Shown here in pieces: positions 1 to 45,932 of a stretch of 64,000 nucleotides of DNA. This DNA comes from Candidatus Babelota bacterium (GTDB taxonomy: Bacteria > Babelota > Babeliae > Babelales > JAUPTZ01): NCBI GenBank assembly GCA_030917815.1, contig JAUPTZ010000001.1, positions 2,102-66,101 on the forward strand. The letters run 5' to 3'. Each line of letters begins with the position of its first letter. Position 1 is the first letter of the stretch. The notes under the pieces are model-generated. The model was not told the DNA's origin, ran no database searches, and was given only the letters and a program-made list of their open reading frames with translations. The translations under genes were made by a program, and so were the position numbers.

Positions 1-211
1 CCATTTTTTTATGCGCTTTGAGACAGAGTACTGCATATGCGGTGGCACCGATTCCGCTAACACCAGCGATTTTAGCCGAGCGGGTAGCAAAAAGGTTAGA
101 AATGTTTGAGGAAGATTCGGTGGCAGCAGTGCCGCTTATTGCGCTGAAGGGCATACCGAGCGATAGTGCGACGAGGACGAATAACGCATAGGTTTTATGT
201 CTCAATTGCAT
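1..211 (-). CDS. 5' part (first ~70 codons) of a membrane-anchored protein of the local leader family; the gene continues beyond the left window edge
   Basis: Not in the ORF track because there is no stop in the window. ATG at 211 is preceded by AAGGAA. The reverse-strand translation MQLRHKTYALFVLVALSLGMPFSAISGTAATESSSNISNLFATRSAKIAGVSGIGATAYAVLCLKAHKKM stays open to position 2. SAKIAGVSGIGATAYAVLCLKAH parallels VAKVAGVSGVAALVLIALCVKAH of the 32564 protein. Confidence 0.55.
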   Translation of the reverse strand, partial: MQLRHKTYALFVLVALSLGMPFSAISGTAATESSSNISNLFATRSAKIAGVSGIGATAYAVLCLKAHKKM

Positions 212-310
212 ACGGTTCCTTGGCTAGCGGTTTAAGGATAAATGGTTACAATATGTATCTATTCTAGCGTATTCTCCCTAAAAAATACAATAGTTAATCC
301 GGTAGCTGCC

Positions 311-3300
311 TTAGGCGGCGATGGCCGCTTGAGGGGATTTTGGAGTGTCTGCAGGAGTGTTAGATGAAGGGGCATCATCGCTAAAAATAGCGGTAACATC
401 GGCAACCACTTGTTGATCATCGCTCAGTGGGGCATCGTTTGCGGTTGGGGGTGCCGTTTTTATTGTGCTGCTTGGTGTGGCTACCGTCACAAAATCACCC
501 GGGTTAAGTGATTTTAAGAAATCGGCAGATGATTCTGGTACTGGTCGTTTGGCTTCTGCGGCAGGGGCTGCTGCGGTGGTGCTTGGTACTGCAACACCGG
601 TTGATGCGGTGGTGGCCACCGCTTCTTCAGGAGTAGCTTTCATCAAAGCGGCAATCGTCGGCGGTAGATAGCGTGGATCTGATGGGTCGGTTACCGGAGG
701 TTCTTCTTTTGGCGCCGTTGCTATTTGTATGCCGGCTACTTTTTTATTTGCTTTTGGACTGGTAATGGCTTGTGCATCAATAACTGTAATGTTTTCGTAC
801 AATACATTAGTACTACCGCTGCTTAACGCAAAGTACGCGACAGTGTCTGGTGAGTCCGGCTTTGGATTATTCCAAGAGAAGAGCTCTTTGCTGTGAGGGT
901 CGCCGGTACCAACGCTGATCGTGTTGTTTTGGTAGGTAATCCAGAGTGATTTGGTTATTGGTTTGACCGTTACATCAAATTTTCCTGCAACCGTATCTTT
1001 ATCCATGATGACCGACTTGGTATTTTTCCATCCACCAAGGATAACGGCGTAGCGTGGCATCATGCTTGGTATATTGTTGAGGCCAATGTAGACCTCACCG
1101 TTTGATGCGGTGACGTCACAGGTGAGTGTTTGCCCCATTTTGAGTTTCCAGTGTGGATTCCAGGTAAAAACTCCTTGTTTATTATAAGAGTTGTAGATCG
1201 AATTAACTGGCCATGAAATACCTTTGACTGAGGCCATTTGTTCTACGGTAATCATTTGATCGTTAGCGGCCAGTGCATAGTAGATGATTCCTCTATCGGC
1301 CTCAATCGTATCATCATGCCAGAAGAGGAGGATGTTGGTCCCCGGTTTGTCTCCCAGACCAACGCAGACGCTGCCGTGGTCATAAAGCACCCAATAAAAA
1401 GCCGGAACATATTGATTTTTGATAACTGCATTGGCGCTATCAATTGCGGCAACTACGCTTCCATTTGACTTGATAACCGTACGGCTATTTTTATCGGCAC
1501 CGATAACGACTTCGTAGAGTGGTGTGCCTCCGGTACTATTATGCAGCCCTATGCAGAGGTCATTAGCGCCTCGAGCTTTGAGAACGATGCCTCCAAAATC
1601 GGACTGAAGGAGTCGCCATGTTTGGTCAAACTTATATTTTCCTCGGTTGGCCGGTATAACGTACTGATCTACTTTTTCTTGTTTGGCAACCGGCAGGTTC
1701 TGTATGTTGCTGTAGCGTACGTTGCTGGCATCGCTGCTGAAACTAAAATAGGTCGCCTCACTGCTCATGCTATCTTTCCAGTCAAGGAAGGTTTTTACAC
1801 CCGGTTTGTTGCCGGCGCCAACGCTGATATGATCTTCATTGAAAATTACCCAGTACGTGCTTGCATGACTAGGAACGCTGACAACGCCTCGTGCATCGGT
1901 AATCGATTCAACAATATTCCCTTGTTTTTTTATCTGTGCGCCGGTGTTTTTATTGGCACCAATAATTACTTCAAACAACGGGTTTGCCAGTGTTGCAAGT
2001 TTGTTGTCGAGTCCAAAGTAGTAAGGCCCGTCTCCTTGGACATCAAAGACAATGCTGCCTGCACTGTTAGCGCTCAACTTCCATTTATCTGAGAAGGTGT
2101 AGGTGCCTTTACGCATATTGGCCGAAAAACTGGTATTTCTTTTAAGTACACTGGTTGAAGATCTTTGGCTTTCAATAGTGCGATACGTTGCTTGGCCGGT
2201 ACTGCTGCTTACCGAAAAGCGTTGCATGATATCAACCACATTAATATTTTGGTAATCGGCTAAGAGCGAGTCATTATTTTGGGTTGTTCCTTGACCCACT
2301 GCAATGTACCCTTTATCAAAAACAATCCAGAATGCTTGAAAATCTTCTTTACTTACGAGTGGTTGGCTGCCGAGTTCACTCGTCGCTACGAGGACGCCAT
2401 TTTGTGTGATGGTGCAATTTTTGCCAATTTTAATGACATAGGTCGGTTCTGCTTTAGTGCCGGTAAGGCCGATAACTGCTTCGCTGTCGGTTTTTACTTC
2501 AAAGGTTATGAGGCCTTGTTCCGGCTTTGCCAGGGCCCATGGCGATAACCAATTAAACACTCCTTTTTCTTGGCACGCGCTATACGTCTGGTAAGCCGGC
2601 ATTGCATTGCCGGGGAGTTGGGTGGTGTCTTGGTAGGTTGCATCGCCGTTGGCGCTTGCTAAGGCAAAATGGGTAATCTCTTTGGCCGGCTCTCGGTCAA
2701 GCCATTCCAGGACCGTATTTTTATGAGGATCGCTATTACGCCCCACGGTGAGATGTCCTTTATGGTAGCTAATCCAAAATCCATAAAAATTGTCACCGTC
2801 TGGCAACAATGCATCGCTATCGGTGCTTCGTGCTACGACAGTCTTGTTTTTGCGCACAGTTGCTTCTTTACCGTTTATAAATACTTCGTATACGGCACCG
2901 CTTTTTTGGTTGCCAATGCCTATACACAGAGTGCCTGATGAGCGTGCATTCAAAGTCATGATACCTGCGTCTGGTTTATGAAGTTTCCAGGCCTCTTCCC
3001 AGACGTAAGTAGCGGTTGGTTGCGGGGTATGAGTGGTATAGGCTTCTGCAAGCAATGCATCACCATATTCGGTAACAATGATCGGATCTTTGGGATCAAG
3101 AGCGGCAATTTTTTTGCAATATAAGGAAGCTTGCGTTTGATTGCCTATAGCAAATGAGGTGAATGCCGGTTTCGCCGGCAGTGTTGTCTGCCCAATAATA
3201 TCTTTTTGCGTGACCGGGCCATGGCCATAGGCGAGCGCGCCAGTGGCTTTATTGTAATGTACCCAATAGGGATAAAAATTAAAGGGATCGGTTATGTAGG

Positions 3301-5497
3301 TTGCTTTGTTTTCGGTGGTAACGAGGATAGCTCCTTTGTCGTCGGCTACGGTAGTTTTTGTACCGCCTGCATCGCCAACGACCAGCGTGTAGATCTCTTT
3401 TGCATCGGTCTGTAGGCCAACGCTGAAGCCGAATTGAGTTTTTGCCGCAAAGATGAGAAGCAGGTCATCGGTATTGGGGAGAGTCCAGCTGCTGCGCCAT
3501 GTCAGTGGTGTTTGTGGCCCGGCCGTAAATTGAGTGCCACGGCGTAATGGTTTATCGAGAGGAAGAGCTGCAATCGAATTAAATTCAACATGATCGGTGT
3601 TATTAGTAAAGCAGAAATGGGTGAGTGGTTGTTTATCGGTTGGTGTTTCAAGAATAACATCGTTGCCGGGAGTGGTACCGGTGCCCAACATGCAGTAACC
3701 GTCTTCATCATAGGCAAACCAGTAGGGGGTATAGCTACTTTTAGCGGCGATTATTGCTTCGGTATCGGTAGTTTCAGAAATAACTTTTTTGGTGTGATCA
3801 CTGAGTGTTGTTTTTGTGTTTTTCTCGGCACCAATAGTGCAGAGCAATGTATACGAGTTGTCGGTTGAGGTGCCATTTGTGTGTAAAGCAAGGCACATGT
3901 CACTCGCTCCTTTTCCATGCCACGTTACAATGCCTTTTCCGGCGGTTGGGAGTGCCCATGTTTCATTCCATGTGCATGCAAAATGACGATTAACCGCACT
4001 GGCCATAGTGCCGATTGGGCAGGCGACAGCCGGCTGTATAACGATATCGCGAATTTCTACCGGATTATCCCAGCTACTGAACGAAACATATTGGATAGGG
4101 CATCCACCACCGCCTTCGGTTGGTTTTTTTGCCGGATCGATTGGCGTTGCCGGCGTGTCATGATGCTCGGCGGGAGCTGCAGAATGGGCCGGTGCAGTGG
4201 ATGAAGGTGGCGCTTCGGCCAGTATGTTGACGATAACCGATGGGGCCATTGTTGCCGGGTCTGCATACATTTCACTGATAATATTTTTTGATGGGTTCGT
4301 GCCGCTACCGATTACAAAATGACCGTTGTTGAACGTTGCCCAGTACGGATGATACGTTTTATTGCTGCTGTCTGAAAGGGTTGCATCAGGGTCTTGTGAG
4401 ATGGCAAGATAGTTGTAGGTTTTACCATCGGGCGCGCTCGTAGCCATTGTTGCTTTGCTATTGCCTTCAGCGCCAATGGCTGCGAGATATCGCGCAAAAG
4501 TAGCATGGGGATTATCACTTAAGCCAATGGCAATGTGTTGCGATGCTTTTGCGGTAAAGGTTATGGTACCGTTGTTAAGTGCCGGTAATTTGAGTGGCCA
4601 TGAGAATTGGTTATAGGCATTGTATGAGCTGTATTGTGAACCAAATGCTTGAGTGCTTGGCGGACCGGTATGAATGTTTACAAAAGCGAGTTGATTGTCT
4701 TGTGAAGAGAACGAGAAATATTGAATTTTTTCGGGCAAATTAGGAACATTCCAATCAAACAGAAGTTCTTTGCCCGGTGTTGCGCCACGGCCAACCGAAA
4801 CATATCCCTTGTTAAAACTTGCCCAATAGGTTTGAAAGCCACCGTCTTTTTTTTGTAGTACGAGTCCGTTCGGATCGCCACTGGAGAAGAGTACTACGTT
4901 ATTTTGATCACGGATGACGTTAATCGAATTTTGCTTTGTGCCCAGTAAAATATCAAAATCTTTGTTATGTACCTGTTCTTTTTCATGTACTTCATGATGG
5001 AACGCGATATGTATTTCCCGATCGCCGGCAACATCAAAGATAACGCTGCCACTATCGGCTTCAGGAAGCTTCCATTTTTCGATCCAGCGAAACGTATTTT
5101 TCATGTTATTAACGGTGTACGATACCGGATCTTTTTCATCTACAATGCTGGCCGTTTCATCCGGGGTAAGGAAATCAATCGTCCCCATGCTTTTTATGTC
5201 TTCGGCGGTGAAGGGGAACTTTTGGCGCATTGCGGCTAGGCGTTGTGCGTTCTCGGCCTGGATTTTTTTCAGTGCATCATCACGATCCCGCAATTGTTTT
5301 TTGATGCCGGTTTGTTCTACTACGGTGGTATTTTTTTTGACTTCTAACGCGGTGAGATCGGATAAGAACGCTTTGCGGTGTTCTGCGATTTTTGCAAAGA
5401 TATCATCTTTAGATCCATGTGACAGCGGGTTGAAAATATCTGCGATCATGTTGCCAAAGCTTGCAAGCGTTCTCTCCGGATGAGTAAGGTCAAGCAC
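311..5497 (-). CDS. giant (1728 aa) repeat protein with nine tandem FAMeT-like (Methyltransf_FA-type) beta modules, a helical N-terminus and a P/A/T/S-rich tail
   Basis: 5187-nt ORF. Nine ~150-aa modules each carry IGxxKN(T/S)xxxI, (Y/F)W(V/I)x(F/Y)xxGx(I/V)xVGxG..PG and YF(S/A)(F/L)SS-type motifs. Examples are YEVVIGADKNSRTVIK...FYWVLYDHGSVCVGLGDKPG and AVILGGWKNTKSVIM...SLWITYQNNTISVGTGDP. The listed GTG start has no SD, and the frame stays open upstream to the stop of the preceding gene. Confidence 0.9.
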   Translation of the reverse strand: MLDLTHPERTLASFGNMIADIFNPLSHGSKDDIFAKIAEHRKAFLSDLTALEVKKNTTVVEQTGIKKQLRDRDDALKKIQAENAQRLAAMRQKFPFTAEDIKSMGTIDFLTPDETASIVDEKDPVSYTVNNMKNTFRWIEKWKLPEADSGSVIFDVAGDREIHIAFHHEVHEKEQVHNKDFDILLGTKQNSINVIRDQNNVVLFSSGDPNGLVLQKKDGGFQTYWASFNKGYVSVGRGATPGKELLFDWNVPNLPEKIQYFSFSSQDNQLAFVNIHTGPPSTQAFGSQYSSYNAYNQFSWPLKLPALNNGTITFTAKASQHIAIGLSDNPHATFARYLAAIGAEGNSKATMATSAPDGKTYNYLAISQDPDATLSDSSNKTYHPYWATFNNGHFVIGSGTNPSKNIISEMYADPATMAPSVIVNILAEAPPSSTAPAHSAAPAEHHDTPATPIDPAKKPTEGGGGCPIQYVSFSSWDNPVEIRDIVIQPAVACPIGTMASAVNRHFACTWNETWALPTAGKGIVTWHGKGASDMCLALHTNGTSTDNSYTLLCTIGAEKNTKTTLSDHTKKVISETTDTEAIIAAKSSYTPYWFAYDEDGYCMLGTGTTPGNDVILETPTDKQPLTHFCFTNNTDHVEFNSIAALPLDKPLRRGTQFTAGPQTPLTWRSSWTLPNTDDLLLIFAAKTQFGFSVGLQTDAKEIYTLVVGDAGGTKTTVADDKGAILVTTENKATYITDPFNFYPYWVHYNKATGALAYGHGPVTQKDIIGQTTLPAKPAFTSFAIGNQTQASLYCKKIAALDPKDPIIVTEYGDALLAEAYTTHTPQPTATYVWEEAWKLHKPDAGIMTLNARSSGTLCIGIGNQKSGAVYEVFINGKEATVRKNKTVVARSTDSDALLPDGDNFYGFWISYHKGHLTVGRNSDPHKNTVLEWLDREPAKEITHFALASANGDATYQDTTQLPGNAMPAYQTYSACQEKGVFNWLSPWALAKPEQGLITFEVKTDSEAVIGLTGTKAEPTYVIKIGKNCTITQNGVLVATSELGSQPLVSKEDFQAFWIVFDKGYIAVGQGTTQNNDSLLADYQNINVVDIMQRFSVSSSTGQATYRTIESQRSSTSVLKRNTSFSANMRKGTYTFSDKWKLSANSAGSIVFDVQGDGPYYFGLDNKLATLANPLFEVIIGANKNTGAQIKKQGNIVESITDARGVVSVPSHASTYWVIFNEDHISVGAGNKPGVKTFLDWKDSMSSEATYFSFSSDASNVRYSNIQNLPVAKQEKVDQYVIPANRGKYKFDQTWRLLQSDFGGIVLKARGANDLCIGLHNSTGGTPLYEVVIGADKNSRTVIKSNGSVVAAIDSANAVIKNQYVPAFYWVLYDHGSVCVGLGDKPGTNILLFWHDDTIEADRGIIYYALAANDQMITVEQMASVKGISWPVNSIYNSYNKQGVFTWNPHWKLKMGQTLTCDVTASNGEVYIGLNNIPSMMPRYAVILGGWKNTKSVIMDKDTVAGKFDVTVKPITKSLWITYQNNTISVGTGDPHSKELFSWNNPKPDSPDTVAYFALSSGSTNVLYENITVIDAQAITSPKANKKVAGIQIATAPKEEPPVTDPSDPRYLPPTIAALMKATPEEAVATTASTGVAVPSTTAAAPAAEAKRPVPESSADFLKSLNPGDFVTVATPSSTIKTAPPTANDAPLSDDQQVVADVTAIFSDDAPSSNTPADTPKSPQAAIAA

Positions 5498-5722
5498 CAG
5501 CTTTAAATTTTTCTTTACGCCAAACAGGTGGATCAGTAGAAAGAGGTCAAGTGATCCTTGTACGACATTTTTTATCGAACATCTGAATGCTGCACCATCA
5601 ATTCTAAAAACTTCAAAAGCTGCGGTGATGATACCTTTGACCGCAATGGTCAGTCCTTTGGTTATTTCTTCGTTAGCTTTAAATGCGGCCCATGCAGTAA
5701 TTAAGGTTCCTTGCGCGACGTA

Positions 5723-7414
5723 TTATGAAAGATTTGTTGTATTGAGTGCTAGACTGAATGCTAATACCTCGGCTAACTCTTCGATGGTCAGGGGATTTGC
5801 TGCTACCAAAGCGGCTTCAAGGCCGACGTATGATGCTTTGAGCGCTACTTCTCCGGCTGCATAGGAGAGTGCGTAGGTGACTGTTAATATTTCTGAAAGT
5901 GGTAAAACCAACGCTTTGACCGTTTCAAGCACGCCGATGGCAACACCGCGTGCCGTTTCGACTGCCGCTACGCGTACACTCCAATACGTAAGCTCAGCAA
6001 CCTTCCAAAACTCGTACCATTTCATGCCACGAGCAACGCGCTTAAGGCTCGCGATAGCATGATGTACTTCGGAATTAAGTGAGTTTACTTTGGTAACAGC
6101 GGCCGCAATTTTCTTTCTGCCCTCAAGCATTTTTTTTCGAGCGGCGAGAATTTTTCCCAATTCGTGGCCAAGATTTCTATCGGCTTCTTCTACCGCCTTT
6201 ACCGCCGAGTCAATTCCTTTTTGTGCGCCATTCATTGCGGCAAAATAAGCGGCTTGTGCGTGCTTAAGTTTTGCACTGAGATTGCTAATGTCGTGTTTAA
6301 GTCCATCAACTTTTTTGCGTGCATTCTCAATTCCTTTCTCAGCTTTTTTATACACATTGACTAATGCATCACCAACTTTGGTTACGGCCGCCTTTGCTTC
6401 TTTTTCTATGAACCCAATGAAGTTATTTTCTACGGCTCCTTCTAGAAAAAAATCACCGTCGTTGAGTTTAAATTCGGCAAGAAAGGTGGTGGAAAACATG
6501 CCAAACAAATTGGCGTAAGTCATTAAGTGAATGGTCTCTGAGGCAATAATAAGATCGATTTCTGCCATTGCACCAAAAAGGTCAACCAATCCGCTTAGGG
6601 TCACTTTTTGCACCTTCTTATCAAGCCGTATTTCGGCGAGTACGCCATCGTCGGCAGTTCCATACTTACCATCAGGCCCAACGCCGGTGATTTTTATAAG
6701 ATTGGCAACGTTGATCTCTTTCATATAGGCCTGTAGGAGTAATCCCTCGGTATTCACGGCGAATGTGGCGCGAAGATATGCGCCCCAACCGAGCGACATT
6801 TTTGCGGTCATGCCAAAACCGTTTTTTGAAATATCTACACCGGCCTCTTTGAGTCCGGTTAAATTATAGGCAAACAAATCGGTATCTTTTTTTACAGCAG
6901 TTGTTTTTTCGGTTTCATTTTTTTGTGCAGCGGCAAGAATTGTTTTCTTTTCCGCTTTGGCAGCCTCTACTTTAGCCGCACTTTCCTCGGCAGTTATTGG
7001 CGCCGGCCCTGTGTCCGGTTCAGGTGCCGGTAATGCCACTGCCGGTACGATTGCATTATCCGATTCGCTCGGATCAAATGCAGCTACGTTATCGGTGTGT
7101 GCAGTAGCCATATACGACACCGGCTTTTCATTTGGATCGGTACCATCAACCATCGCCATTTCGGCCTGAGCATCGGATGGTGGATTGGTGCCATCGCTAG
7201 TGTCTGCATTATCGGTGGCGACTTTTTCAGTAGCCGGCTCGGCCGATTTTGGTGCGGCATCGGTGGTCGATGCTGGAGTCACTGGTGCAACGGCCGGGGC
7301 CGGAGTGGTTGTTGGATGCGTGGTAGCGAAGAGGAGAAGGGACAGGCAGGTGAATACTACGATGATTGTGCGAGGAGCACCGTTGTTCGGCGATCCGGTT
7401 GGAGTATGATTCAT
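5723..7414 (-). CDS. secreted or membrane-anchored hypothetical protein (563 aa) with a GK-YGTADDG domain and a long helical C-terminal half
   Basis: ATG at 7414 is preceded by AAGGA; the ORF-track start at 7438 would overlap the upstream gene by 20 nt. It has a hydrophobic anchor IIVVFTCLSLLLFATT and a P/A/T-rich spacer. The segment KITGVGPDGKYGTADDGVLAEIRL...LFGAMAEIDL is paralogous to the C-terminus of the 7419..10637 protein. The C-terminal half is coiled-coil and hydrophobic helical. Confidence 0.8.
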   Translation of the reverse strand: MNHTPTGSPNNGAPRTIIVVFTCLSLLLFATTHPTTTPAPAVAPVTPASTTDAAPKSAEPATEKVATDNADTSDGTNPPSDAQAEMAMVDGTDPNEKPVSYMATAHTDNVAAFDPSESDNAIVPAVALPAPEPDTGPAPITAEESAAKVEAAKAEKKTILAAAQKNETEKTTAVKKDTDLFAYNLTGLKEAGVDISKNGFGMTAKMSLGWGAYLRATFAVNTEGLLLQAYMKEINVANLIKITGVGPDGKYGTADDGVLAEIRLDKKVQKVTLSGLVDLFGAMAEIDLIIASETIHLMTYANLFGMFSTTFLAEFKLNDGDFFLEGAVENNFIGFIEKEAKAAVTKVGDALVNVYKKAEKGIENARKKVDGLKHDISNLSAKLKHAQAAYFAAMNGAQKGIDSAVKAVEEADRNLGHELGKILAARKKMLEGRKKIAAAVTKVNSLNSEVHHAIASLKRVARGMKWYEFWKVAELTYWSVRVAAVETARGVAIGVLETVKALVLPLSEILTVTYALSYAAGEVALKASYVGLEAALVAANPLTIEELAEVLAFSLALNTTNLS

Positions 7415-7418
7415 GGTG

Positions 7419-10400
7419 TTATCCTTGTGCGCGAACATAAAACTCTACGTCGGTAAGACCAAATTTAGGAATAAGGTCGCTTGGTATATGACAAATATCG
7501 GCAATGTCGTGGAGCGTGAGCGCATCGTATTTGCCGGCAAAACTACAGCCGAGCGTATTGATATCGCCAAATAACATTGCTTGTGCCGACTTACCTAATT
7601 TAATGGTACCATTGGCGCGAAAACCAAGGCGCCATCCTTTATGGTACGTTTCGCCAACGATGTGTGCATCAAGAATGCCAAGAAGCTTCATAAGCATCTT
7701 AAAGCGAAGATGGAGGAGGCCGATATCAATTTCTATTTCGGCCGATGAGCCAAAAAGTTCGGCCATTGCAGAAACAAAAATGCGTTGTTCAGTCAGTGAT
7801 AATGCGGCATAAAAAATAGGGCCATCGTCGGCTGTGTTGTATTTTCTATCTTTTCCTTTGCCGGTAATTTTTAGCGGACCAAGATTGAATTTTGGCATCA
7901 TCGCATACAGCTTAAACCCGCCCATGATATCGAGGTTAAATCCTGCTTCAAGTTTGGTATTGATGACATACGGAATTTTAAGTACCAGTTTCCCTGAGGC
8001 GCTTATACCAGGGTCAAAATAGATTTGTCCGATTTGCCCACCGATTGGCGCGAACTTAAATTTTACATCATAGAGTGATATGTCAATTGCCTTGATGATA
8101 TCCAATGGGCCTAGATCAAGACCCATTTTGCGGATTAATGCAGGCAATACGAAGAGGGGCCATTCATTGATTTCAGCGAGGAGTAGAATACTGTTAGGTG
8201 CTATTTTAACCGCGGCACGCGCGATAATATCGCCGAGTTGGATAGCACCGGTGATGCCGGCACCAACCGGTGGAATGAGCGGTGCATAGGGTAGTGACAT
8301 TTCTACGGCAACATCGCTTACGGTAATGCCCGGAATGCTGAACGGGTGCCGCCAGACTCCTTGCATTGTTCCTGCTATGGTAAAGAATCCAGGGCTGAAC
8401 GCTATGCTCGCCGTGAAAATGAGTGGAGGCTTGCTTCGGTCGGTTATAAAGGCCAAAGAAACCATTATGGTAAGACTGCCGTCACCACTGATTTGAACAA
8501 TGATATTGTGAATGCTCACTCTGCTTGAGAGTTTTATATCAAGTGGTATCGCAATTTGGATGGTATACCAAGGCATTGATTTCAAGATTGTTATGCCGCC
8601 GATTAGCTTCTTTGGCAGAATGGGGAATATTTTGCGAACCGATTTAAAAAGGCCTTGCGACATATCAAGAGCGCCAAACATATTAAGGCCGGCCTGCATC
8701 ATCATGCCTGACTCGGCATCAAGATACGCACTTTTTACAAAACCGAAGGTGATTGTTTCAAAAACAAGCGAATCGCCAATACTGCCTTTAAGAGAGGGGA
8801 ATGAATCGGAAAGACGCCACGCTTTTTGGGTTGAGGCCATGATTCCTTTAGCGGCGCCAAGCAATACTTTTGCCTGTGTTGCAATACCAAAGAGAACGGT
8901 TTCGCCGCCGATAAATGTTTTTTTTGCCGAATCAATACCAAGAGCCGATTTATTTAAGATAAAGTCTTTAATTCCCGGTATTTCGTTGAGGCCGGGAATG
9001 CATTCAAGCGGTTTTATTGGTTTGCCGCCATTAATTTCTCCGGAAAATTGAACCATTCTTGTTTTTCCACCGAGCGCAGCGGCAGCGCCAGGTCCGAGCA
9101 TGCTCATATCCGGTTTTATGAGACGCAGGATTGGTACGATTTGAAGGCCAAACAAATTGAAGGTACTTTTTACCGCGACATTAAGGTTACTCTGCTCTTT
9201 GCCACTTGCATCGACCGACATGCCTTTCTGTGAAGAGAGAACAATATCTGGATTCTTAAATTTTATCGGGCCCCAATCAAATGAGTTTCCTAGGCTGCCG
9301 ATAAGCTCAAATTCACCATACGCTTTTCTGCCATGTACCGGTATATTAATAAGACCAACAACCGGCAGATTGCAAGAAATGATGCCGCCGATACCAATTT
9401 CTGCTTCTACTGCGCTGCTCCCAAGGTTCATTTGAATGTTCGGCTTGTCCAATGCAATATCGGTATCAAGTTGTAATGGTGTTGTCCCTTGTGCTTCAAG
9501 CATAATCGTAACACCACTGAAAATGATGGTAACGTCGGAGCTGCTTAAATGTGTTTTTCCGTAGAGTACAATTTGGTCGAGATTTGCCGTGGCAGTGATA
9601 GTGCTACTAGGAACACCACCAGAGGCGGCAAGTTCTTGTACGGCATTCAGCGGGTTAAGAAATGATATTGAAACGCCTGACAATGTTATGGTTTCGGCCT
9701 GTTTATTCCCTTTTGCTTGCGACACAATACTGGTAAGCGGAACATCTTCATCTATGGCGGCCGTTGCACCACTATTATTTGGTGTTTCAACACCAAAAGT
9801 AAGGGTCGTACCTTTCTTTCCTGGCGTGAACATTGACGATTTTGCGGTGAGTGTTGGGCCGGTAGGGGCAAGGCTCAAAGTAAGCGTGGAGATCGAGATT
9901 GGTTTTCCGGGGAGAATGTCGAAAGTGAACGGTTTTGCGCAGGTTAATTTTAAGCGGAGCTCAGGTGCCTTGTCGTCATATTTTATGACCGATACCGTAG
10001 CTTCGGTGTCCTTTATGGTGCAGGTACCAGAGAGCGAGAGGTGACCGGTTTTGTCCACGTATCCGGCGAGATCTTTAAACGAAAGCAGACCAACGCTGAG
10101 GCTTTTTTTGCCGGCTTTATCAATGATATCTTTGCGGGTAAGGCCGGCAGGAGAAACGGTTTTGTCGGCAATCGATTCCGGAGAAGGACCGAAGTTGAAA
10201 ATCCCAATTATTGGTAGGGAAACATCGGCACCGTCTACGGCGGTGTAGATGCCGGGGCCGGGGTCGTTGTCGCTGTCATCGCTCGATGACTGAGCCTCTT
10301 CTGCATCTGCCGTTTCTGGTGCATCATCCTTAGTGGTTCCAGTTTCGTCAGGGGTGGTCGCATCAGGAGAATCTTTACTCTTTTCGGCCGCATCGAGGAG

Positions 10401-20093: not shown

Positions 20094-21809
20094 ATGAAAA
20101 AGCTACAAGTCTATCTAATATGCCTGGCTTCAATGCCAGCACTATTTGTTCATGCGCGGCATGATGCCGTCCTTGCTGGTGGATTGAGCGCGGCCGCTCT
20201 TTCAGGACTTGTTTTGGCGGTCGAGAAAGCCCGAGTTAATCGGTTAGAAGAGGAGGTGGGTCGGCTGCGTGCATCTGGTGCGAGCGAAGAAAGCATTCAA
20301 AGAATTCGTACGCAGATTGCAACGGTTCCTTTATATCACAAGGTAGCCCGTGTGGGCCTTCCGGTTGGTGGTATTCTTGCGGCGGCCGGATTTTTTATGC
20401 CGCAGTCGGTCGAGGGTAATCGAGATGCCGATTCGACTCAAGCTACTAATACGGTAGTGGTGGCGCCGGTTGTCACAAAGCGGCCGCTTGTTCCTACCGG
20501 TGATGGTGTGGCCAAACCTGATTCTAAACCAGATTCTAAGCCGGCAGTTAAGAAGCGCTCCGGTAAAGACGGCGAGCGGGCGATTGATGCTGATATTAGT
20601 GCGATGATTGATGCGGCGAGCGATCGCGGTGTGGCGGTGTCAAAGAAAACGTTTGTGCATGTGCCGGTTGCCGGTGATGGTAATTGTGGTTTCCATACTC
20701 TTGGTTTCTTTGCCAACATGCTTGATAGTGAAAGTTATGAGAAGAAGCTTTTTCGTGCTGAAGCGGGCGATATTGCCCAGATTCGTCGTTCAACCTACGA
20801 AAAAATGAAAGAATTGGTTGAGCAGGAATTAGCGGCACTTGATAAGGCCGGTATTCGTACCGTTCGCGACCTTGAAGATGCTAATAAAAAAGAGGCTTCC
20901 GGCTATCGGTATCCGTGGGTGGTACGCTTGGCAAGTAGATTTAATGATGCCGAGGTCTTTGGCTATGATTCCGGCTTGAGTCGTCAGGACGTATGCGAGC
21001 AACTGCTGCTAGGTGACCCGGACTGTATGAAGCAGGTAGCGGCTCGACTTAACCTCACCAGTCGATATAAGATGTCTGATGATCAAATTGTGGCGTCGAT
21101 GAGGTCTGTCGGGGGCGTTGGGGCCTTTTTTGAAGCGGTGGAGCAAGAGGTTGCTCAACGGCTTACGTCAAAGGTAAAAGTCTATGTTGGCCAGGTCTGT
21201 GCCGATATTGATGAATGTGCCGAGATGTCTGATGATCAAAAATTTATGTATATTAAACAGCATCCCGATCTTGCAGCCGCTCTGCTTAACCGCTTTGCGT
21301 TGCCTCGGTACACCGGTGCTATTAAGCCGGGCAGAACAGGAACTATTACCGAAGAGGATCATTTTGAGGTACACAGCGGTCTTTTGGATGATAAACGAGC
21401 AGTAAGCGCGCAGGCGTGGATCGGTATTTTGGCTCGCCGCCAAGCAAATACGCTTGAGCGTGCCGCATCTGAAGCGGTACCTCTGAGGCCGCTTGCCAAA
21501 AAGATGCTCGGGCACTATCGGCAGATAGTGGGCGAAGGGGAGAATGTTGTGCTTGCAAACAGCGAGCACGCATCGGCCTGGTTGGATAAAATTGAGTTTG
21601 ATGTTAAGGCTGAAGAGATGGAGCGCCCAATACTTATTTGGGAGCGTGATGGGAGTGGCTATAAGGTAGCCTCAATTTCTGGTAAGCAGTATTGGGAAAA
21701 ATGTGGCAAGGAAATGACCGAATGTATGCATGTACTGAATGAGGGGAATGGGCATTGGTCGGTCTTGGTTCCAGAAGCAGGGCTTCCTATGCCAATGATG
21801 GAAGAGTAA
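20094..21809 (+). CDS. membrane-anchored OTU-like cysteine protease (putative deubiquitinase), paralog 1
   Basis: Leader with three hydrophobic segments and a KPDSKPDSKP linker. Cys box HVPVAGDGNCGFHTLGF (OTU-type D-G-N-C) and C-terminal His box LNEGNGHWSVLVP are present. Confidence 0.6.
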   Translation: MKKLQVYLICLASMPALFVHARHDAVLAGGLSAAALSGLVLAVEKARVNRLEEEVGRLRASGASEESIQRIRTQIATVPLYHKVARVGLPVGGILAAAGFFMPQSVEGNRDADSTQATNTVVVAPVVTKRPLVPTGDGVAKPDSKPDSKPAVKKRSGKDGERAIDADISAMIDAASDRGVAVSKKTFVHVPVAGDGNCGFHTLGFFANMLDSESYEKKLFRAEAGDIAQIRRSTYEKMKELVEQELAALDKAGIRTVRDLEDANKKEASGYRYPWVVRLASRFNDAEVFGYDSGLSRQDVCEQLLLGDPDCMKQVAARLNLTSRYKMSDDQIVASMRSVGGVGAFFEAVEQEVAQRLTSKVKVYVGQVCADIDECAEMSDDQKFMYIKQHPDLAAALLNRFALPRYTGAIKPGRTGTITEEDHFEVHSGLLDDKRAVSAQAWIGILARRQANTLERAASEAVPLRPLAKKMLGHYRQIVGEGENVVLANSEHASAWLDKIEFDVKAEEMERPILIWERDGSGYKVASISGKQYWEKCGKEMTECMHVLNEGNGHWSVLVPEAGLPMPMMEE

Positions 21810-21814
21810 TGTTT

Positions 21815-23764
21815 ATGAAAAAATGGTTGGTACCTTGTTTGGTGGCAGTTGGTCTGGCGACAGCCCCCGTTAGTGCGTGGAGTAGTCGCCATGTGGTTGG
21901 CGCAAGTGGCGTGGGTGTGACTACGTTGGCCGGGATGGTCGTCTGGCTGACACAGAAGAAAATTAATCGTCTTGAGACTCGCTTGGCTCGTCTACAGCCA
22001 ACGAAGGCTCCGGTTACGCCGTTGGCAGCGATGTGCATGAAGCAGATTACTACCGAGATTGAGCGGCTTACCCTTATGCGCAATGTGGCCTTGCCTTTCT
22101 TGCCTATTGGGGTTGGCCTCATGGGCGGCGCCGGGCTTTCCTGGTGGCGCAATCGGGGTAAGGAGATCGAAGAATCGCCCGATTACCAACCGATTCATCC
22201 GAAGCCGGACGCATCCGGTAAGCGGTTGGGTTCACGTTTAGCTACGTGGACCGTTCCGCATGATTTACTGGCCGAGGTGTCGGCCGACGTGAATCGTAGT
22301 GCTGCCTATAAAGAGGCCGGGCTTACTGAGCACTGCTATTCGCAAGAAGGGCGATCCGGTACCGGTTTTATCGCGAAAAATGACGATGAGGCCGCGTTTG
22401 TACTGGCCGATATGATAGTTCACCACACGGAAAAGGGTCTGGTGGTGCCGGAGAGCTACTTTAATAATATTGATATGGATGGCAGTACCTTGGATTGTGG
22501 TTTCAACGCTATCAGTTTTTACCGTGGTTTGCGAAAGAATAAGAAATATGGACTTGCGCGCTATCGTGGCAGTGATATCGCAGAAGTGCGCCAAGCGCTT
22601 GCGGCAAAGATGAAAGAACGGGTTGAGGCCGAGTTGGCTCAATTGGAGAAGAGGGGCATTGGATATGTTGGTCTTTTTGAGCAAATCAATGAGCCTTGCT
22701 GGGTGGACGGCAAGGTAATGGCCGGAAGAGTGGGGCCTACTATTCTGGGACTCATTGATCGATTTAGTGATGCTGCGGGTGGAGATGTTCTTTCACGATC
22801 GGTCGTTGGTCTAGAGCTTTTTAAGGAGCATGCGGCGGCGGCGCACGAGGTTGTTGCGAGGCTGGATCTTGCGCGGCGGTATGGCAAAACAGAAGATGAA
22901 TTGGTTGAAATAATACAGAAATATGGATTTAGCAGGATGGTTGAGGCTGGCGAAACAAATCATGGGAAAGCGGTTGTTGCCGGGATCAATGAGTATTTGG
23001 TAGCGGCCTGCAAGGACGTACCGAGCGAGAAAGAAATGTCTGCGGAAGAGCGGTTCATGTATGTTAAGAGCCATCCTGAGTTAGCGGTTGCTATGGTTAA
23101 GCGGTTTGCGTTACCGTTTTATACCGGTGCACAAAAACCGAGTAAGCGCGGGGAGGCAATTACCGAAGAAGATGATGTTAAGGAGCTGCTAGATCGCTTG
23201 CATGAAGATCGCAATAAGAGCGCTGAGGCGTGGATAAAAAACCTTGCTTTTCGTGAGACCAGTGCGATCGATGAGGCGGCTTATAAAAATTGTGTAAAGC
23301 TCCGCCCACTTGTCGAAAAAATGCTTCATTATTACGAAGAAAATGTGGGCAAAGGGAAAACCTCATTTGAGGGGCATAGGCGATCCCGGTTCTTGGAAAG
23401 GACCGAACTTGATAATGAGGCCGAGATTGTGGGACGGCCTATTGTGCAATGGACTCATGTTGATGGGCACTATGTGGTAGCTTCGGTTTCTGGGGGGCGA
23501 TACTTTGAAGCGGTAGGTAAAAAGATGAGCGAGTGTATGCATATGCTCAATGAAGGTAACGGTCACTGGCGTGCATTGGTTCCGGCTAAAAATGATGATT
23601 TAACCGTAGAGAGAGTAGTGCCGGCCGCTTTCGCCGACCTTGCTGATGGTTGGGAAGATTGGATGGGGTACGATTCCTTCGACGATTTTAGCGTTGATAG
23701 CGAGGATCTCGATGAAGAAGAGTCGGAACGGTCTGACACAGAGGCTAAAGGAGCGGCAGCTTAG
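21815..23764 (+). CDS. membrane-anchored OTU-like cysteine protease, paralog 2
   Basis: Starts MKKWLVPCLVAVGLATAPVSA; an ATG at 21809 overlapping the upstream TAA (TAATG) is also possible. Cys box DGSTLDCGFNAISFY and His box LNEGNGHWRALVP are present. It is collinear with 20094..21809 and has an acidic C-terminal tail. Confidence 0.55.
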   Translation: MKKWLVPCLVAVGLATAPVSAWSSRHVVGASGVGVTTLAGMVVWLTQKKINRLETRLARLQPTKAPVTPLAAMCMKQITTEIERLTLMRNVALPFLPIGVGLMGGAGLSWWRNRGKEIEESPDYQPIHPKPDASGKRLGSRLATWTVPHDLLAEVSADVNRSAAYKEAGLTEHCYSQEGRSGTGFIAKNDDEAAFVLADMIVHHTEKGLVVPESYFNNIDMDGSTLDCGFNAISFYRGLRKNKKYGLARYRGSDIAEVRQALAAKMKERVEAELAQLEKRGIGYVGLFEQINEPCWVDGKVMAGRVGPTILGLIDRFSDAAGGDVLSRSVVGLELFKEHAAAAHEVVARLDLARRYGKTEDELVEIIQKYGFSRMVEAGETNHGKAVVAGINEYLVAACKDVPSEKEMSAEERFMYVKSHPELAVAMVKRFALPFYTGAQKPSKRGEAITEEDDVKELLDRLHEDRNKSAEAWIKNLAFRETSAIDEAAYKNCVKLRPLVEKMLHYYEENVGKGKTSFEGHRRSRFLERTELDNEAEIVGRPIVQWTHVDGHYVVASVSGGRYFEAVGKKMSECMHMLNEGNGHWRALVPAKNDDLTVERVVPAAFADLADGWEDWMGYDSFDDFSVDSEDLDEEESERSDTEAKGAAA

Positions 23765-23921
23765 TCATCTTTTATACTAATGGAATCATGTGTTTTGGGG
23801 GAAAGCCGAAACTTTTTCTCCAAATTATTCCAGCTTTGTGATAGTCTCTGCTATTATTGTAAAGTGTATGTTACGTTTTTTGCCTAGTAAATTGTTTTTT
23901 CAGCCTTTGTTTGGGGGATGT

Positions 23922-26150
23922 ATGTTACGAGATAAAATTTTTATAATGCTAGCCGCCGTTTTTGTGAGCGGTTTTGTGGTTAATGAGTGTTCGGCCATGG
24001 ACCGTGACGTGTACGGTGCGCAACAGGCGTATATAGCTGCTTCGCAGCTTGCTAACGCAGAAGTACAGAATCTGCGAGCTTCGGCGGTACAGGCTAGAGC
24101 TGACTTGGATGCAGCGGTTGCAAATGGTCGGGCTCGGCTTGATCAATTGAAACGTGATGCTGAGGCCGCGGCCCAGCGAGCGGCAGCGGACGGTGTTGAT
24201 GCGTTGAAAGGCCAAGTGCAACAACAAATTCGGGCAGAACAACAGAGAGTAACTCAAGCGATTCAGGAGTGTGAGCGGAAAAAGCAGGAGCTCGCAGCTG
24301 ATTATGAAGAAAAGAAGCGAGGTTTGACTCGCGAGGTTGAGCAAAAGCGAAGAGAATTTGAAGAAGCAAACAGGCGGTTTGTGGAGCAGCATAAGCAAAC
24401 AACCGAAGCTGATCGTAGAAAAGCCGAGGAAATGCAACGTGCAAAGATTGCTGCGGACGAAAAGTTGCAGCAAGATCAGCAGGCATTTTTGCGAGCTGAG
24501 GCAGATGCTGGACCTGGCCGTCTTAAAGCACTCGAAAAAACTAAACTTGAGGCAGAGCAAGCAAAGCACTTGCAAAAAGTTCAGTTCGATCGTGATAATG
24601 CTGAGAACACCGCAATGCAAGCGTTGAGAATAGAAGCGCTTAAGGGCTCTGCGCTGCGTAAGGGTACCCCAACCGCCGCAGAGCTAGAAGCGGCACCGTA
24701 TAGTGATGAAGATGGTTATGATTACGACGCAATCATTGCCAAAATCAGAGCCGGAGGCACCGACGAGGATGCTTTGCGAGCTGACAAGATGCTTGAGCGC
24801 CGCCAAATTCAGCAGTCGATGGCCGATTATGAGCTTTTCAAGCGCTCTGCCGAAATTTCAGCCGAAGCAAAAATGTTAGAAGACAAAGAAATACAGGCGT
24901 ACGAAGCGGCATTGTTGCCGAAGCGTATTGCGGCACAAGCGGCAAAAGATATTCAAGAGCAAAAAGTTGCTGAAGTGTCGGCGCGTGAAACGGCGTTGAT
25001 GAACAACAAGTTTAAGCCGCTTGAATATAGAAATAACAAAGAAATGCTTAAGATGAAGATGGAAGGGCTCATGAACCTTGCCAAGATGGTTGGTGATGGG
25101 TTTACGCCTAAGAATGTTGCCCTTGCCGCTGCCGGTATCGGTGGTACTTACGGATTGGTCAAGTTGCTTGGCGTTGGTTCCCGTCAGTTGGAACGTATCC
25201 TGAAGCAACCGGTGTTGGTCCGTCATTCTTCACAAGGTGGTCCATTGACTAAGCTATTCCGTTCTATTTTCCCTAAAAAATCTGATCACGCTACCTACCA
25301 TTTGAGCGATATGATCTTGAACCCAGATCTTGCTAAAAAGCTTGAGCGGATTTCAAACATGATCAAGCTGGCTCAACAACATGGCGCACCATTGCCTGGT
25401 GTGGTGGCTTACGGTCTACCGGGTAACGGTAAGACGATGTTCATGGAAGCATTGGCAAACGATTCTGGTATGAACTTTGCAATGATGACCGGTGGCGACG
25501 TATCTGCCTTGCTTTCAAGCGGTGGTAAGAACGCGGCCGTTACCGAAATTCATAAGTTGTTTGACTGGGCAATTACCGCCGGACCAACATTGTTGTTTAT
25601 CGACGAAGCCGATGCGTTCCTTAAGAAAGGCCGTGATGCTAAGTTGAGTGAAGGCTTGGCCGCTGCGATTAACGCCTTCTTGAACCGTACCGGTGCTTCA
25701 AGCAACAAGGTGATGATTGTGTTGGCTACTAACCATCCACACGTGTTCGACGAAGCGGTGGCAAGTCGTATGTCGATCTGGGTTAACTTCCCAGCTCCTG
25801 GCTTTAACGAACGTGCTAAGATGTATGTTAAGTTCCTTGATGACGTGGTTAATGAAGGTGTGGGCGACGATCATACCCCAGTGGTTATTGTACCGGAAGC
25901 TCGTTCAGAAAACTTCGTTCAAGAAGTGGCAAAACGTACCGATGGCTACTCAGGTCGTGATATGACCCGTAAGATCTTCGACTCGTTGCAACGTGAAATG
26001 CTTGCCGAAGGTAAGTTCCAAGTAGATCGTTCGCTCATTATGCAAACGTTGAATGAGATCGATGCACAAGAAAAAGAATTGAACTCGTTTAACACCGTTG
26101 GAAACAATGGTTCGAGTTTCGTCAATCATGCGGCCGCTATCGCTGCGTAA
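23922..26150 (+). CDS. ATAD3-like protein: N-terminal hydrophobic segment, long coiled coil, central TM, C-terminal AAA+ ATPase
   Basis: ATG 23922 is preceded by GGGGGA. The AAA core GLPGNGKTMFMEALANDSGMNFAMMTGGDV...HKLFDWA...LLFIDEADAFLKKG...NAFLNRTGASSNKVMIVLATN closely matches my recollection of eukaryotic ATAD3 ([76 protein letters not shown]). The TM and juxtamembrane region ALAAAGIGGTYG...ILKQPVLVRHSS parallels ATAD3 ...ILGQPSLIRESS. Confidence 0.8.
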   Translation: MLRDKIFIMLAAVFVSGFVVNECSAMDRDVYGAQQAYIAASQLANAEVQNLRASAVQARADLDAAVANGRARLDQLKRDAEAAAQRAAADGVDALKGQVQQQIRAEQQRVTQAIQECERKKQELAADYEEKKRGLTREVEQKRREFEEANRRFVEQHKQTTEADRRKAEEMQRAKIAADEKLQQDQQAFLRAEADAGPGRLKALEKTKLEAEQAKHLQKVQFDRDNAENTAMQALRIEALKGSALRKGTPTAAELEAAPYSDEDGYDYDAIIAKIRAGGTDEDALRADKMLERRQIQQSMADYELFKRSAEISAEAKMLEDKEIQAYEAALLPKRIAAQAAKDIQEQKVAEVSARETALMNNKFKPLEYRNNKEMLKMKMEGLMNLAKMVGDGFTPKNVALAAAGIGGTYGLVKLLGVGSRQLERILKQPVLVRHSSQGGPLTKLFRSIFPKKSDHATYHLSDMILNPDLAKKLERISNMIKLAQQHGAPLPGVVAYGLPGNGKTMFMEALANDSGMNFAMMTGGDVSALLSSGGKNAAVTEIHKLFDWAITAGPTLLFIDEADAFLKKGRDAKLSEGLAAAINAFLNRTGASSNKVMIVLATNHPHVFDEAVASRMSIWVNFPAPGFNERAKMYVKFLDDVVNEGVGDDHTPVVIVPEARSENFVQEVAKRTDGYSGRDMTRKIFDSLQREMLAEGKFQVDRSLIMQTLNEIDAQEKELNSFNTVGNNGSSFVNHAAAIAA

Positions 26151-34290: not shown

Positions 34291-36135
34291 ATGAAGAAAA
34301 TGTATCGATTACTACTCTTAACGGTCGCGGTGTTTGTAGCGCCGTGCACTTCTTTGCAGCCCAATGTGCGCGTTATAGGTGGTGTTTCAGTTGCAGCGGC
34401 AGCTGCTTTGGTAACGGGGCGGTATATTGTTGCCAATAAAAATCTTGCGGGAGCCAGGGAGCGACTGCATGAGGCTTTGAGGCCACTACCGGTCCTGATA
34501 ACCGATGGGGGAGAGGTTGCCGAGCATGTGGCTGGTATGCAGGCACAACCCGACTATATCATACAGAAGGCGCGGCGTGGGGTTGAGGTAGCGCAGAAAG
34601 AATTTGATCGTGTCGATAAGGTTCTTAAGGGGTTTATTGCGATCTTTGGTGTTGGGGTAATTGTGCTAGCTATTCGTCATATGATGGCTCCGGAATCTGA
34701 GGATGCCTCATTACTCGGTACCGTGACAGGCGGAAAGCCGGCTACAAAGCCAACGAGCGATGATACAAAGCCACTTGTGGTGACGCCACCAGTAATCGAT
34801 GATACAAAGAAACCAGATGAAGAGAAACCAGATGATAAGCCTGGTGCGATAGAGCCACCGGTAGTTGTGGTTACGCCACCAGTAGTTGTGGTTACGCCAC
34901 CAGTAGTTAAACCGTTGACCCCTGCAGAGCAACGTGCTGCCGATATTGCAGCAAGGGAGGCCGCGCTCCAGGCAGAGCATACGAGAAAGATGCAGGAGGC
35001 AGAGCGCAGGCGGCAGGAAGAGTATGCCAAAGACGAGGAAGATCGGAGATTAGCGCGAATTGCCGATGCCAAAGAGGAGCGAGAAGCGAGAGCGGCAGAG
35101 CGTGAAGCGGAGCGGATACGTGCTGAAAAAGAAAAGCCAATGCGGGATTTCATGGCCGCACTTGATGAGGCGCAGAGAGGAAAGCCATCAGATCTTGATC
35201 AGTATAGGAAGCTGGATTACATGAAAGAAATGAATGCACTTGGTGATCGGCGTAATCTTCAAGAAATTGTTCAAAAAATCGGGGCAATGCCAGAGCCGGA
35301 GCGAATGATGCTTAGGCAACGGATATTGGCTGCGAGTGGAAGAGGGCCGTTTCTTTCCCGATTCCGCGCAAAGGATTTGAAGGCCGATGACGTTGAAATT
35401 TTGCGGCAGCTTCTTAATGTGGTTGATGTCGGGCCCAATGCTTGGATGGTTGAGCGCGATAGATCTTTTGAGCCGATTAAAAGATTTGATGATATTGCAG
35501 TCGGCGAGACCCAAGAGGCTTTTGATGCTTCTACTAATGTCGCGCAGGATTTTGCGGCCCAAATAGATCTTGCCGTTTTGCTGAGAAGCAGAAATATTGC
35601 CTTTTCTCTAAAAACACCAAATGGCAGCGTATTGTGCAGCAACGAAGGTATAGAATTTGACGTAGACACCATGCGCTACCGTAGCCGTGATTGGAGTGAT
35701 AGAAGTAATTTCAAACCGGATGGTACTTTTAGGCATAGGGTAATTGAGCGATTGAACCAGTATGAAGCGGCTAAAAGTAAGCTCGGTGCTTGTATTGCTA
35801 GCGGAGATATAGAAGGATTTAAGGCAGAATTAGCGAGACATCCGAAGCTTGATATCGATTGTCCGGTGGCGGAGTATCAGTATCAACCACTGCTTCTTCT
35901 TGCGGTGGGATCCGATAACGATCACCATCGTGAGTTTGTGACCGCTTTGCTTGAGCGTGGGGCCAATCCACGCATTGTTGCGTCTAATAATGGTGCTATT
36001 TTCGCGGCACGCCAGGCGGCAGCGCAGCATTATGATGTACGATTGAGCGACGATAGGCAAAGTGATAAGTACCGTGAGTATCAAGAGGTTCGTGAAGATC
36101 TGCGGGTAGCTGTTCTTGCGCAGCAGCTAGTATAA
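34291..36135 (+). CDS. membrane-anchored protein with a PPVVVVT repeat, an E/R-rich coiled coil and a weak C-terminal ankyrin-like repeat
   Basis: Leader MKKMYRLLLLTVAVFVAPC plus TM segments. Contains EAERRRQEEYAKDEEDRR. The ANK-like stretch is PLLLLAVGSDNDHHREFVTALLERGANPRI. Confidence 0.7.
   Translation: MKKMYRLLLLTVAVFVAPCTSLQPNVRVIGGVSVAAAAALVTGRYIVANKNLAGARERLHEALRPLPVLITDGGEVAEHVAGMQAQPDYIIQKARRGVEVAQKEFDRVDKVLKGFIAIFGVGVIVLAIRHMMAPESEDASLLGTVTGGKPATKPTSDDTKPLVVTPPVIDDTKKPDEEKPDDKPGAIEPPVVVVTPPVVVVTPPVVKPLTPAEQRAADIAAREAALQAEHTRKMQEAERRRQEEYAKDEEDRRLARIADAKEEREARAAEREAERIRAEKEKPMRDFMAALDEAQRGKPSDLDQYRKLDYMKEMNALGDRRNLQEIVQKIGAMPEPERMMLRQRILAASGRGPFLSRFRAKDLKADDVEILRQLLNVVDVGPNAWMVERDRSFEPIKRFDDIAVGETQEAFDASTNVAQDFAAQIDLAVLLRSRNIAFSLKTPNGSVLCSNEGIEFDVDTMRYRSRDWSDRSNFKPDGTFRHRVIERLNQYEAAKSKLGACIASGDIEGFKAELARHPKLDIDCPVAEYQYQPLLLLAVGSDNDHHREFVTALLERGANPRIVASNNGAIFAARQAAAQHYDVRLSDDRQSDKYREYQEVREDLRVAVLAQQLV
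34856..34909 (+). repeat. 21-nt coding tandem repeat (about 2.5 copies)
   Basis: CCACC(G/A)GTAGTTGTGGTTACG repeated, encoding PPVVVVT. Confidence 0.9.
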
Positions 36136-45679: not shown

Positions 45680-45932
45680 AAGGGTCCTTTTCTTTGCACG
45701 AGATTTTGACGATATCTGTAGACAACGTACAGGCGCTGAAACCTCTTTGTACAGAAAATGCTGATATCGACTATCGCTGTCCCACAGCGAAGAATATTCG
45801 GCGATCATTTTTTTTGACCGTTGCATTTCTGCTATGATTGCGATACCATATCCTCTCGTGGCAGTATACGCATTATAACTCGTTGCTTTGTATGTAAATC
45901 GCCTTAAAGGCGGTTATGTAGAAGGTAGGTTT

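Follow-up and report, generated by a model that had tools for sequence, protein, structure and literature searches.

A signal-peptide-bearing giant protein of Dependentiae carries nine tandem PF12248 modules and may be a multivalent lectin-type adhesin

We analysed a stretch of 64,000 nucleotides (the window) on contig JAUPTZ010000001.1 of a Candidatus Babelota bacterium, and specifically a giant minus-strand gene whose product carries a tandem array of nine PF12248 (Methyltransf_FA) modules. The array had been picked out in a first-pass annotation of the bare sequence, which placed it in a 1728-amino acid (aa) open reading frame (ORF) starting at GTG (311..5497; positions throughout are window coordinates), given as 1712 aa by NCBI. 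This ORF proves to be only the distal three quarters of the gene: a 571-aa ORF (5723..7438) lies upstream in the same frame, parted from it by a single TAA, and the true frame runs from 7438 down to 311. The protein is bacterial, as had been stated, since its source is a metagenome-assembled genome (MAG) of the Dependentiae and RuvB, GyrA, DprA and SbcC are encoded in the same window. Read from the N-terminus, it consists of a Sec signal peptide, a proline/alanine/threonine (P/A/T) spacer, a beta domain with a coiled-coil insertion, a second coiled coil, the nine PF12248 modules and a tail rich in proline, alanine, threonine and serine (P/A/T/S). The features are listed here in that order, with the evidence for each; HMM denotes hidden Markov model and pLDDT the predicted local distance difference test.

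311..7438, minus strand: complete frame of the giant gene, 2,375 codons plus the terminal stop, with one interruption
7310..7381, minus strand: Sec-type signal peptide region, aa 20-43, RTIIVVFTCLSLLLFATT (Kyte-Doolittle scan)
6881..7309, minus strand: P/A/T/S-rich low-complexity spacer, aa 44-186, 53% P/A/T/S (composition)
5468..6880, minus strand: orphan scaffold, a beta-rich domain (aa 187-335 and 611-657) into which about 275 aa of very long helices are inserted (AlphaFold2 topology of the homologue P0002)
5723..5725, minus strand: in-frame TAA nonsense codon, codon 572, giving S-stop-Y where homologues have S-Y-Y
5123..5467, minus strand: second coiled-coil segment, leading into the array (AlphaFold2 topology of P0002)
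4652..5122, minus strand: PF12248 module 1 (Pfam 52.4 bits; internal HMM)
4022..4636, minus strand: PF12248 module 2, 205 aa, enlarged by an internal loop (Pfam 27.0 bits)
4097..4270, minus strand: low-complexity loop of 58 aa in module 2, rich in proline, alanine, threonine and histidine (P/A/T/H) and including GGGG (alignment, composition)
3551..4003, minus strand: PF12248 module 3 (Pfam 27.6 bits)
3089..3535, minus strand: module 4, divergent (Pfam 14.1 bits, below the cut-off; phmmer from module 1, independent E-value 1e-4; internal HMM)
2603..3043, minus strand: module 5, divergent (no Pfam match alone; phmmer from module 1, independent E-value 3e-11)
2153..2587, minus strand: PF12248 module 6 (Pfam 27.4 bits)
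1682..2131, minus strand: PF12248 module 7, the one modelled (Pfam 48.5 bits; AlphaFold2 pLDDT 96.4)
1217..1666, minus strand: PF12248 module 8 (Pfam 42.4 bits)
767..1198, minus strand: PF12248 module 9 (Pfam 39.6 bits), the only module with the canonical LGGWKNTKSVI
314..766, minus strand: P/A/T/S-rich tail, 151 aa, 56% P/A/T/S, with a conserved PVTDPxDPRY motif and an alanine-rich C-terminal end, AAIAA

When the ORF at 311..5497 was compared with Pfam-A using hmmscan, PF12248 was matched over 8 stretches (E = 5.2e-74, 247 bits), confirming the family proposed in the first-pass annotation; an NCBIfam scan of the same ORF yielded no match. Scored singly, seven of the nine modules exceeded the curated gathering cut-off of 24.2 bits (27.0-52.4 bits). 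With module 1 as the sole query, phmmer recovered the other eight units (independent E-values of 1e-4 to 4e-24), and an internal HMM built from the units gave exactly nine full-length matches. Repeat detection by these two routes supports the nine homologous units of about 150 aa that had been claimed, with some adjustment of their boundaries: the array extends over 767..5122, close to the 730..5095 given originally.

The family signature, (I/L)GGWxN(T/S)x(S/T)x(I/V), is present in module 9 as LGGWKNTKSVI, and the version quoted when the array was first described, AVILGGWKNTKSVIM, was indeed found in that module; a degenerate form (IGAxKN...) occurs in the other eight. The hallmark GGWxNTxS was detected in 67 of the 160 family proteins retrieved, and stands five times in one amphioxus (Branchiostoma) protein. 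The true inter-module linkers are very short, at 5-7 aa except for a single one of 15 aa. The P/A/T/H-rich stretch with GGGG had been taken for the third of these linkers, an assignment that fails because the alignment places it inside module 2, where it sits ahead of the final strands (IQYVSFSS). The enlargement of module 2 is kept in five orthologues, at 184-226 aa with a loop of variable length; P0007 lacks the loop.

N-terminal to the array, RTIIVVFTCLSLLLFATT is the sole transmembrane-like hydrophobic segment of the whole protein in a Kyte-Doolittle scan, and a classical signal peptide is found at the start of all 10 of 10 homologues. The scaffold beyond the spacer is conserved in every family member, and neither a Pfam scan nor a PDB profile search yielded a relative for it, the latter returning only keratin and ApoA-I coiled-coil noise. 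AlphaFold2 was run on the closest intact homologue, P0002, and the resulting low-confidence model (pLDDT 63) has a beta-rich domain split by helices as long as 134 residues and then another coiled coil. A Foldseek search with this model returned only SMC and JetC coiled coils (template-modelling (TM) score ~0.16). The segment previously described as a 'helical N-terminus' of the protein corresponds to the second coiled coil; it is helical as stated, but lies internally, within the orphan beta/coiled-coil scaffold.

At the other end, the C-terminal 151 aa are rich in P/A/T/S as had been reported, and this tail is disordered. The protein terminates in ...AAIAA (window 311..325), while most homologues end in AAAAA, AAPAA or PAAA. 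Similar ends were seen in two unrelated ORFs of the window, a 669-aa orphan (21755..23764, plus strand; ...GAAA) and a 786-aa CDC48-like AAA+ ATPase (23790..26150, plus strand; ...AAAIAA). The shared alanine-rich C-terminal ends may represent a lineage-specific sorting or degron motif.

In P0002-P0006 and L003, the two parts of the frame are fused in one protein of 2226-2470 aa, whose approximately 650 additional N-terminal residues match the upstream 571-aa ORF. A tyrosine stands opposite the TAA in all of L001-L004 and P0002-P0006 (codon TAC in L003), and the giant gene is unbroken in L003, L005 and L006. Given the common frame, the position of the TAA at a conserved tyrosine and the intact genes elsewhere, we conclude that this is one gene rather than two. 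The 1,803 codons 3' of the TAA contain no further stop or frameshift, so the TAA reflects either an error of assembly or sequencing in the MAG consensus or a very recent inactivating mutation. The NCBI annotation keeps the halves separate, as P0162 ('Chromosome segregation ATPase-like protein', a name that is probably an artefact of the coiled coil) and P0001 ('hypothetical protein'). An apparent second case of a split gene, P0163, was rejected as a contig-end truncation.

Orthologues are 30-58% identical to the giant protein and all of them have nine modules. Modules within the protein share 15-32% identity (mean 23%), and modules at the same position in different orthologues 32-72%; the best match of a module is always its counterpart at the same position, with a strict 1:1 relationship in five homologues. 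There is no tandem repeat at the DNA level within the array, on which ground a recent duplication or an assembly collapse was rejected. The low identity between paralogous modules, their positional orthology and the absence of a DNA-level repeat together indicate that the array is ancient and that every position is individually conserved, a pattern that points to a fixed nine-position array under selection. A scan of GTDB genomes with the single protein found no relative, while the same scan with a four-sequence alignment found L001-L004, and a word-indexed homology search with an alignment of the nine modules gave no match. L003 (CAYSBJ010000002.1) is a 392-kb contig labelled 'uncultured Pseudomonadota bacterium'. 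Its gene order is of the Dependentiae type and its 2470-aa orthologue (55% identical) is intact, and the label 'Pseudomonadota' is probably wrong.

The genes upstream of the giant gene are as follows.

7419..10637, minus strand: orphan partner gene, 1072 aa, with a signal peptide, directly upstream of the giant gene and overlapping it by 20 nucleotides
10743..12029 and 12176..13489, minus strand: two very divergent trigger-factor-like genes, 428 and 437 aa (15-27 bits to Trigger_N/Trigger_C)

The partner gene adjoins the giant gene in every related locus examined (L003, L005, L006 and L007), either abutting or overlapping it, and the overlap is 20 nucleotides both in the window and in L006. 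On the strength of this overlap, the two genes likely form an operon. The gene order in those four loci is RuvB, two trigger-factor-like genes, an orphan of 1046-1102 aa, the giant gene and rpmH/rnpA, and the trigger-factor-like pair, directly upstream of the operon in the window, is thus kept in each. The locus is a vertically inherited, origin-proximal core operon and not an island. Downstream of the giant gene (window 1..400), no terminator or promoter consensus was detected. The partner protein yielded no Pfam or PDB match and carries an acidic low-complexity region; its residues 886-996 form a domain of about 100 aa that is paralogous to the beta part of the scaffold (blastp 1.8e-10, HMM 1e-16). 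Both operon proteins have the beta/coiled-coil scaffold in common, and it could be a device of a new kind for surface display or secretion.

To obtain a fold for the module, module 7 was modelled with AlphaFold2, the input being an alignment of 43 module sequences drawn from paralogues and orthologues. The result, eleven strands in an all-beta sandwich, is predicted with very high confidence (pLDDT 96.4, predicted TM score 0.91). Foldseek comparison with the PDB yielded 35 chains at E<=1e-3, all of them galectins (1, 2, 3 and 10), the carbohydrate-binding module (CBM) CBM66 (4b1m), the fungal galectin CGL3 or the L-type lectin VIP36 (E ~2e-4, TM scores 0.56-0.63, identity 6-15%). Among viral models, the matches were to concanavalin A (ConA)-like, LamG and galectin domains of tail-fibre and structural proteins, including receptor-binding domains of phage tails. 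Each module is thus predicted from the model to be a concanavalin-like (galectin/CBM66-like) beta-sandwich and not a methyltransferase, which agrees with the beta-sandwich envisaged in the first-pass annotation and assigns it to the lectin type. When PDB sequences were searched with the 43-sequence module profile, no relative was found, so PF12248 apparently has no solved structure. A phmmer match to the NanS-p phage sialate esterase (6yp6, E = 0.025) was not reproduced by this profile and was taken as chance. The galectin family (PF00337) was absent from the Pfam matches even at E<=1, and no CBM family in Pfam was matched by the protein or by single modules.

The wider distribution of PF12248 was surveyed with HMMER across 1.84 billion cluster representatives (50% identity); this exhaustive search returned 1,708 proteins at E<=1e-3 and 150 at E<=1e-30. 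Carriers include Lingula, Branchiostoma, a protist entry in EukProt, several TM6/Dependentiae MAGs and MAGs labelled as Gamma- or 'Epsilonproteobacteria'. Those of 'Epsilonproteobacteria bacterium H6679' encode Tectonin-PF12248 proteins of the TM6/Dependentiae type, and the same doubt attaches to their label as to that of L003. In the class of about 1,500 aa, four of the five bacterial proteins checked combine a Tectonin beta-propeller lectin with three PF12248 domains. Of the seven Tectonin-type architectures checked, five join Tectonin lectin domains to PF12248. Other bacterial architectures join MIR and Tectonin domains to three copies of PF12248, or four copies to a galactose/glyoxal-oxidase catalytic domain; in this oxidase fusion, PF12248 occupies the usual place of a CBM. 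One module of a relative scores at threshold level for PF06439, a ConA-like family. We found no paper tying PF12248/Methyltransf_FA to bacteria or to the Dependentiae.

Several known proteins resemble the giant protein in part. Arthropod farnesoic acid O-methyltransferase (FAMeT) proteins belong to the same Pfam family, share the GGWxNTxS signature of module 9 and also have tandem copies, with 1-4 PF12248 modules usually followed by DUF3421 (DM9) (PMC10015273), whereas the giant protein lacks DUF3421 and combines nine modules with a signal peptide and an orphan coiled-coil scaffold. The staphylococcal 'periscope' proteins Aap and SasG present an L-type lectin domain on a stalk (PMC9999234). 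They follow a common logic with the giant protein, that of an exported protein in which an extended stalk carries a ConA-like lectin domain for host glycans, but they have one such domain, near-identical spacer repeats and an LPXTG anchor, while the giant protein repeats its lectin-like domain nine times in diverged form and has no known anchor or secretion signal beyond Sec. Galectins, CBM66, CGL3 and VIP36, all carbohydrate-binding, share the beta-sandwich fold with the modules by Foldseek, but at only 6-15% identity and with no galectin or CBM match in Pfam, and no sugar-binding residues were identified. The Tectonin proteins of TM6/Dependentiae (about 1,500 aa) and the MIR-Tectonin-PF12248 proteins have the phylum, a C-terminal PF12248 region and large size in common with it; they carry three modules and an N-terminal beta-propeller lectin in place of nine modules and a beta/coiled-coil scaffold. 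Lingula anatina LOC106167937, a eukaryotic protein with other flanking regions, carries 14 PF12248 modules in tandem over 3,814 aa; orthology is not implied.

Dependentiae (TM6/Babeliales-type) are obligate intracellular parasites of protists. With moderate confidence, we read the giant protein as a secreted multivalent lectin-type adhesin directed at the protist host, where glycan binding is what we infer. Following Sec export, the protein would be displayed on the cell or released, possibly aided by the co-transcribed 1072-aa partner, and the coiled-coil scaffold would serve as a stalk. With its nine differing lectin-like modules, the protein could then engage glycans of the protist surface, at high avidity and with broad specificity, and such binding would promote attachment and uptake. 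The association of PF12248 with Tectonin, MIR and oxidase domains suggests, by analogy, a glycan context for the domain. Together with the signal peptide, these fusions in other proteins strengthen the original suggestion of a 'multivalent lectin or adhesin', although they do not prove it. A more specific proposal, which we put forward only tentatively, is that the operon encodes an unrecognised host-attachment apparatus whose nine functionally distinct PF12248 lectin modules read different host glycans.

A number of observations weigh against an adhesin. We know of no PF12248 domain for which ligand binding has been shown. The likeness to lectins is at the level of the fold (~10-15% identity), galectin sugar-binding motifs were not identified, and no binding site can be mapped from a PDB relative. 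The model of the N-terminal scaffold is of low confidence, and the very short linkers would fit a purely structural rod too. The frame is interrupted in this genome, leaving the module array, as assembled, without a signal peptide. Pfam scans revealed no autotransporter barrel, RTX, type IX secretion system or LPXTG signature, and a route across the outer membrane was not recognised; Pfam and NCBIfam scans of the giant protein, its N-terminal part and the partner likewise found no adhesin-class secretion or anchoring domain, the Sec signal being the only one. The partner protein is the obvious candidate helper for crossing the outer membrane.

The status of the gene has to be weighed along with its function. 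If the TAA is genuine, this would be a recently inactivated pseudogene or split gene, with the 1,728-aa ORF either unmade or lacking a signal and non-functional. The stop does stand in the assembled sequence, and NCBI lists P0162 and P0001 as two proteins. However, the lesion is a one-base change (TAY to TAA) in a MAG, the codons after it are free of lesions and encode a protein 55-58% identical to intact orthologues, and the split recurs in no other genome once the truncated P0163 is set aside; a genuine stop is possible but doubtful. An enzyme is far harder to defend. A true array of farnesoic acid or other small-molecule O-methyltransferases has the Pfam family name in its favour and nothing besides, as the all-beta sandwich is not the Rossmann-type fold that binds S-adenosylmethionine and no methyltransferase family was matched in the Pfam and NCBIfam scans. 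Even for arthropod FAMeT, activity has never been reliably demonstrated and a Drosophila mutant shows no juvenile-hormone phenotype (PMC10015273). We give this explanation almost no credence.

Two further explanations assign the protein another role. The modules might build a rigid rod or lattice in a structural surface or envelope protein (surface-layer-like, a spacer or a 'periscope') with no specific ligand, any adhesive part lying elsewhere, for example in the tail or the partner. Linkers of 5-7 aa, a module number that is fixed and conserved, conserved residues that are mostly core-like (W, G, YW, FSFSS) and the lack of an identified sugar-binding motif are all in keeping with such a role. 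The spacer arrays of known giant adhesins are usually recent duplications of variable copy number, whereas the nine-module array is neither; moreover, 15-32% identity between modules combined with strict positional orthology suggests position-specific functions, and in other proteins PF12248 recurs next to true lectin domains and to an oxidase. We regard a purely structural role as unlikely. Somewhat less probable again is a secreted effector or toxin acting from within the vacuole, with amphipathic helices engaging host membranes and the PF12248 array mimicking or binding host glycoconjugates or proteins. The intracellular habit of Dependentiae, the likeness of a leucine-rich repeat (LRR) protein in the window to type III effectors, the prevalence of PF12248 in eukaryotes (Lingula, Branchiostoma, arthropods) and the long amphipathic helices of the scaffold would accord with an effector. 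Against it stand the conserved, origin-proximal and vertically inherited locus, which is hence not an island, and the failure of Pfam and NCBIfam scans to find a secretion-system signal or toxin domain. The helices also contain no stretch of transmembrane-grade hydrophobicity, and the scaffold model is too poor to carry a claim of membrane insertion. The lectin-type adhesin remains the reading we favour.

Elsewhere in the window, housekeeping genes encode RuvB, YebC, YicC, GyrA, DprA and SbcC. A 469-aa protein of the ADP-ribosylglycohydrolase family is encoded beside ruvB (14135..15544, plus strand) and in the same place in L006. The LRR protein (47654..50104, plus strand; 816 aa) bears a weak likeness to SspH2, XopAC and a Leptospira fibronectin-binding protein; eukaryote-like repeat proteins are typical of intracellular bacteria. 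Orphan proteins are unusually numerous in the window, and several further large ORFs without a Pfam or NCBIfam match (546-678 aa) lie at 20094..23764 (plus strand), 32534..36135 (plus strand), 43790..45826 (minus strand) and 57388..59400 (plus strand).

The PF12248 call for P0001-P0007 is already precomputed in public resources, and the core domain finding is not new. What appear to be undescribed are the architecture (signal peptide, orphan scaffold and nine position-specific modules), the restriction of the family to a Dependentiae clade, the partner gene and the associations with lectin domains. PF12248 is widespread, yet its enzymatic name is probably wrong, and a bacterial, single-exon, modular family whose modules are predicted with such confidence is a practical starting point for finding a structure and a ligand of the domain. 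For the Dependentiae, a conserved, exported and origin-proximal giant protein bearing nine lectin-like modules is a concrete candidate host-attachment factor. Should the proposed host-attachment apparatus be real, glycan binding would be the first biochemical function for the PF12248 'FAMeT' domain; what the domain does in animals has been contested for some 20 years.

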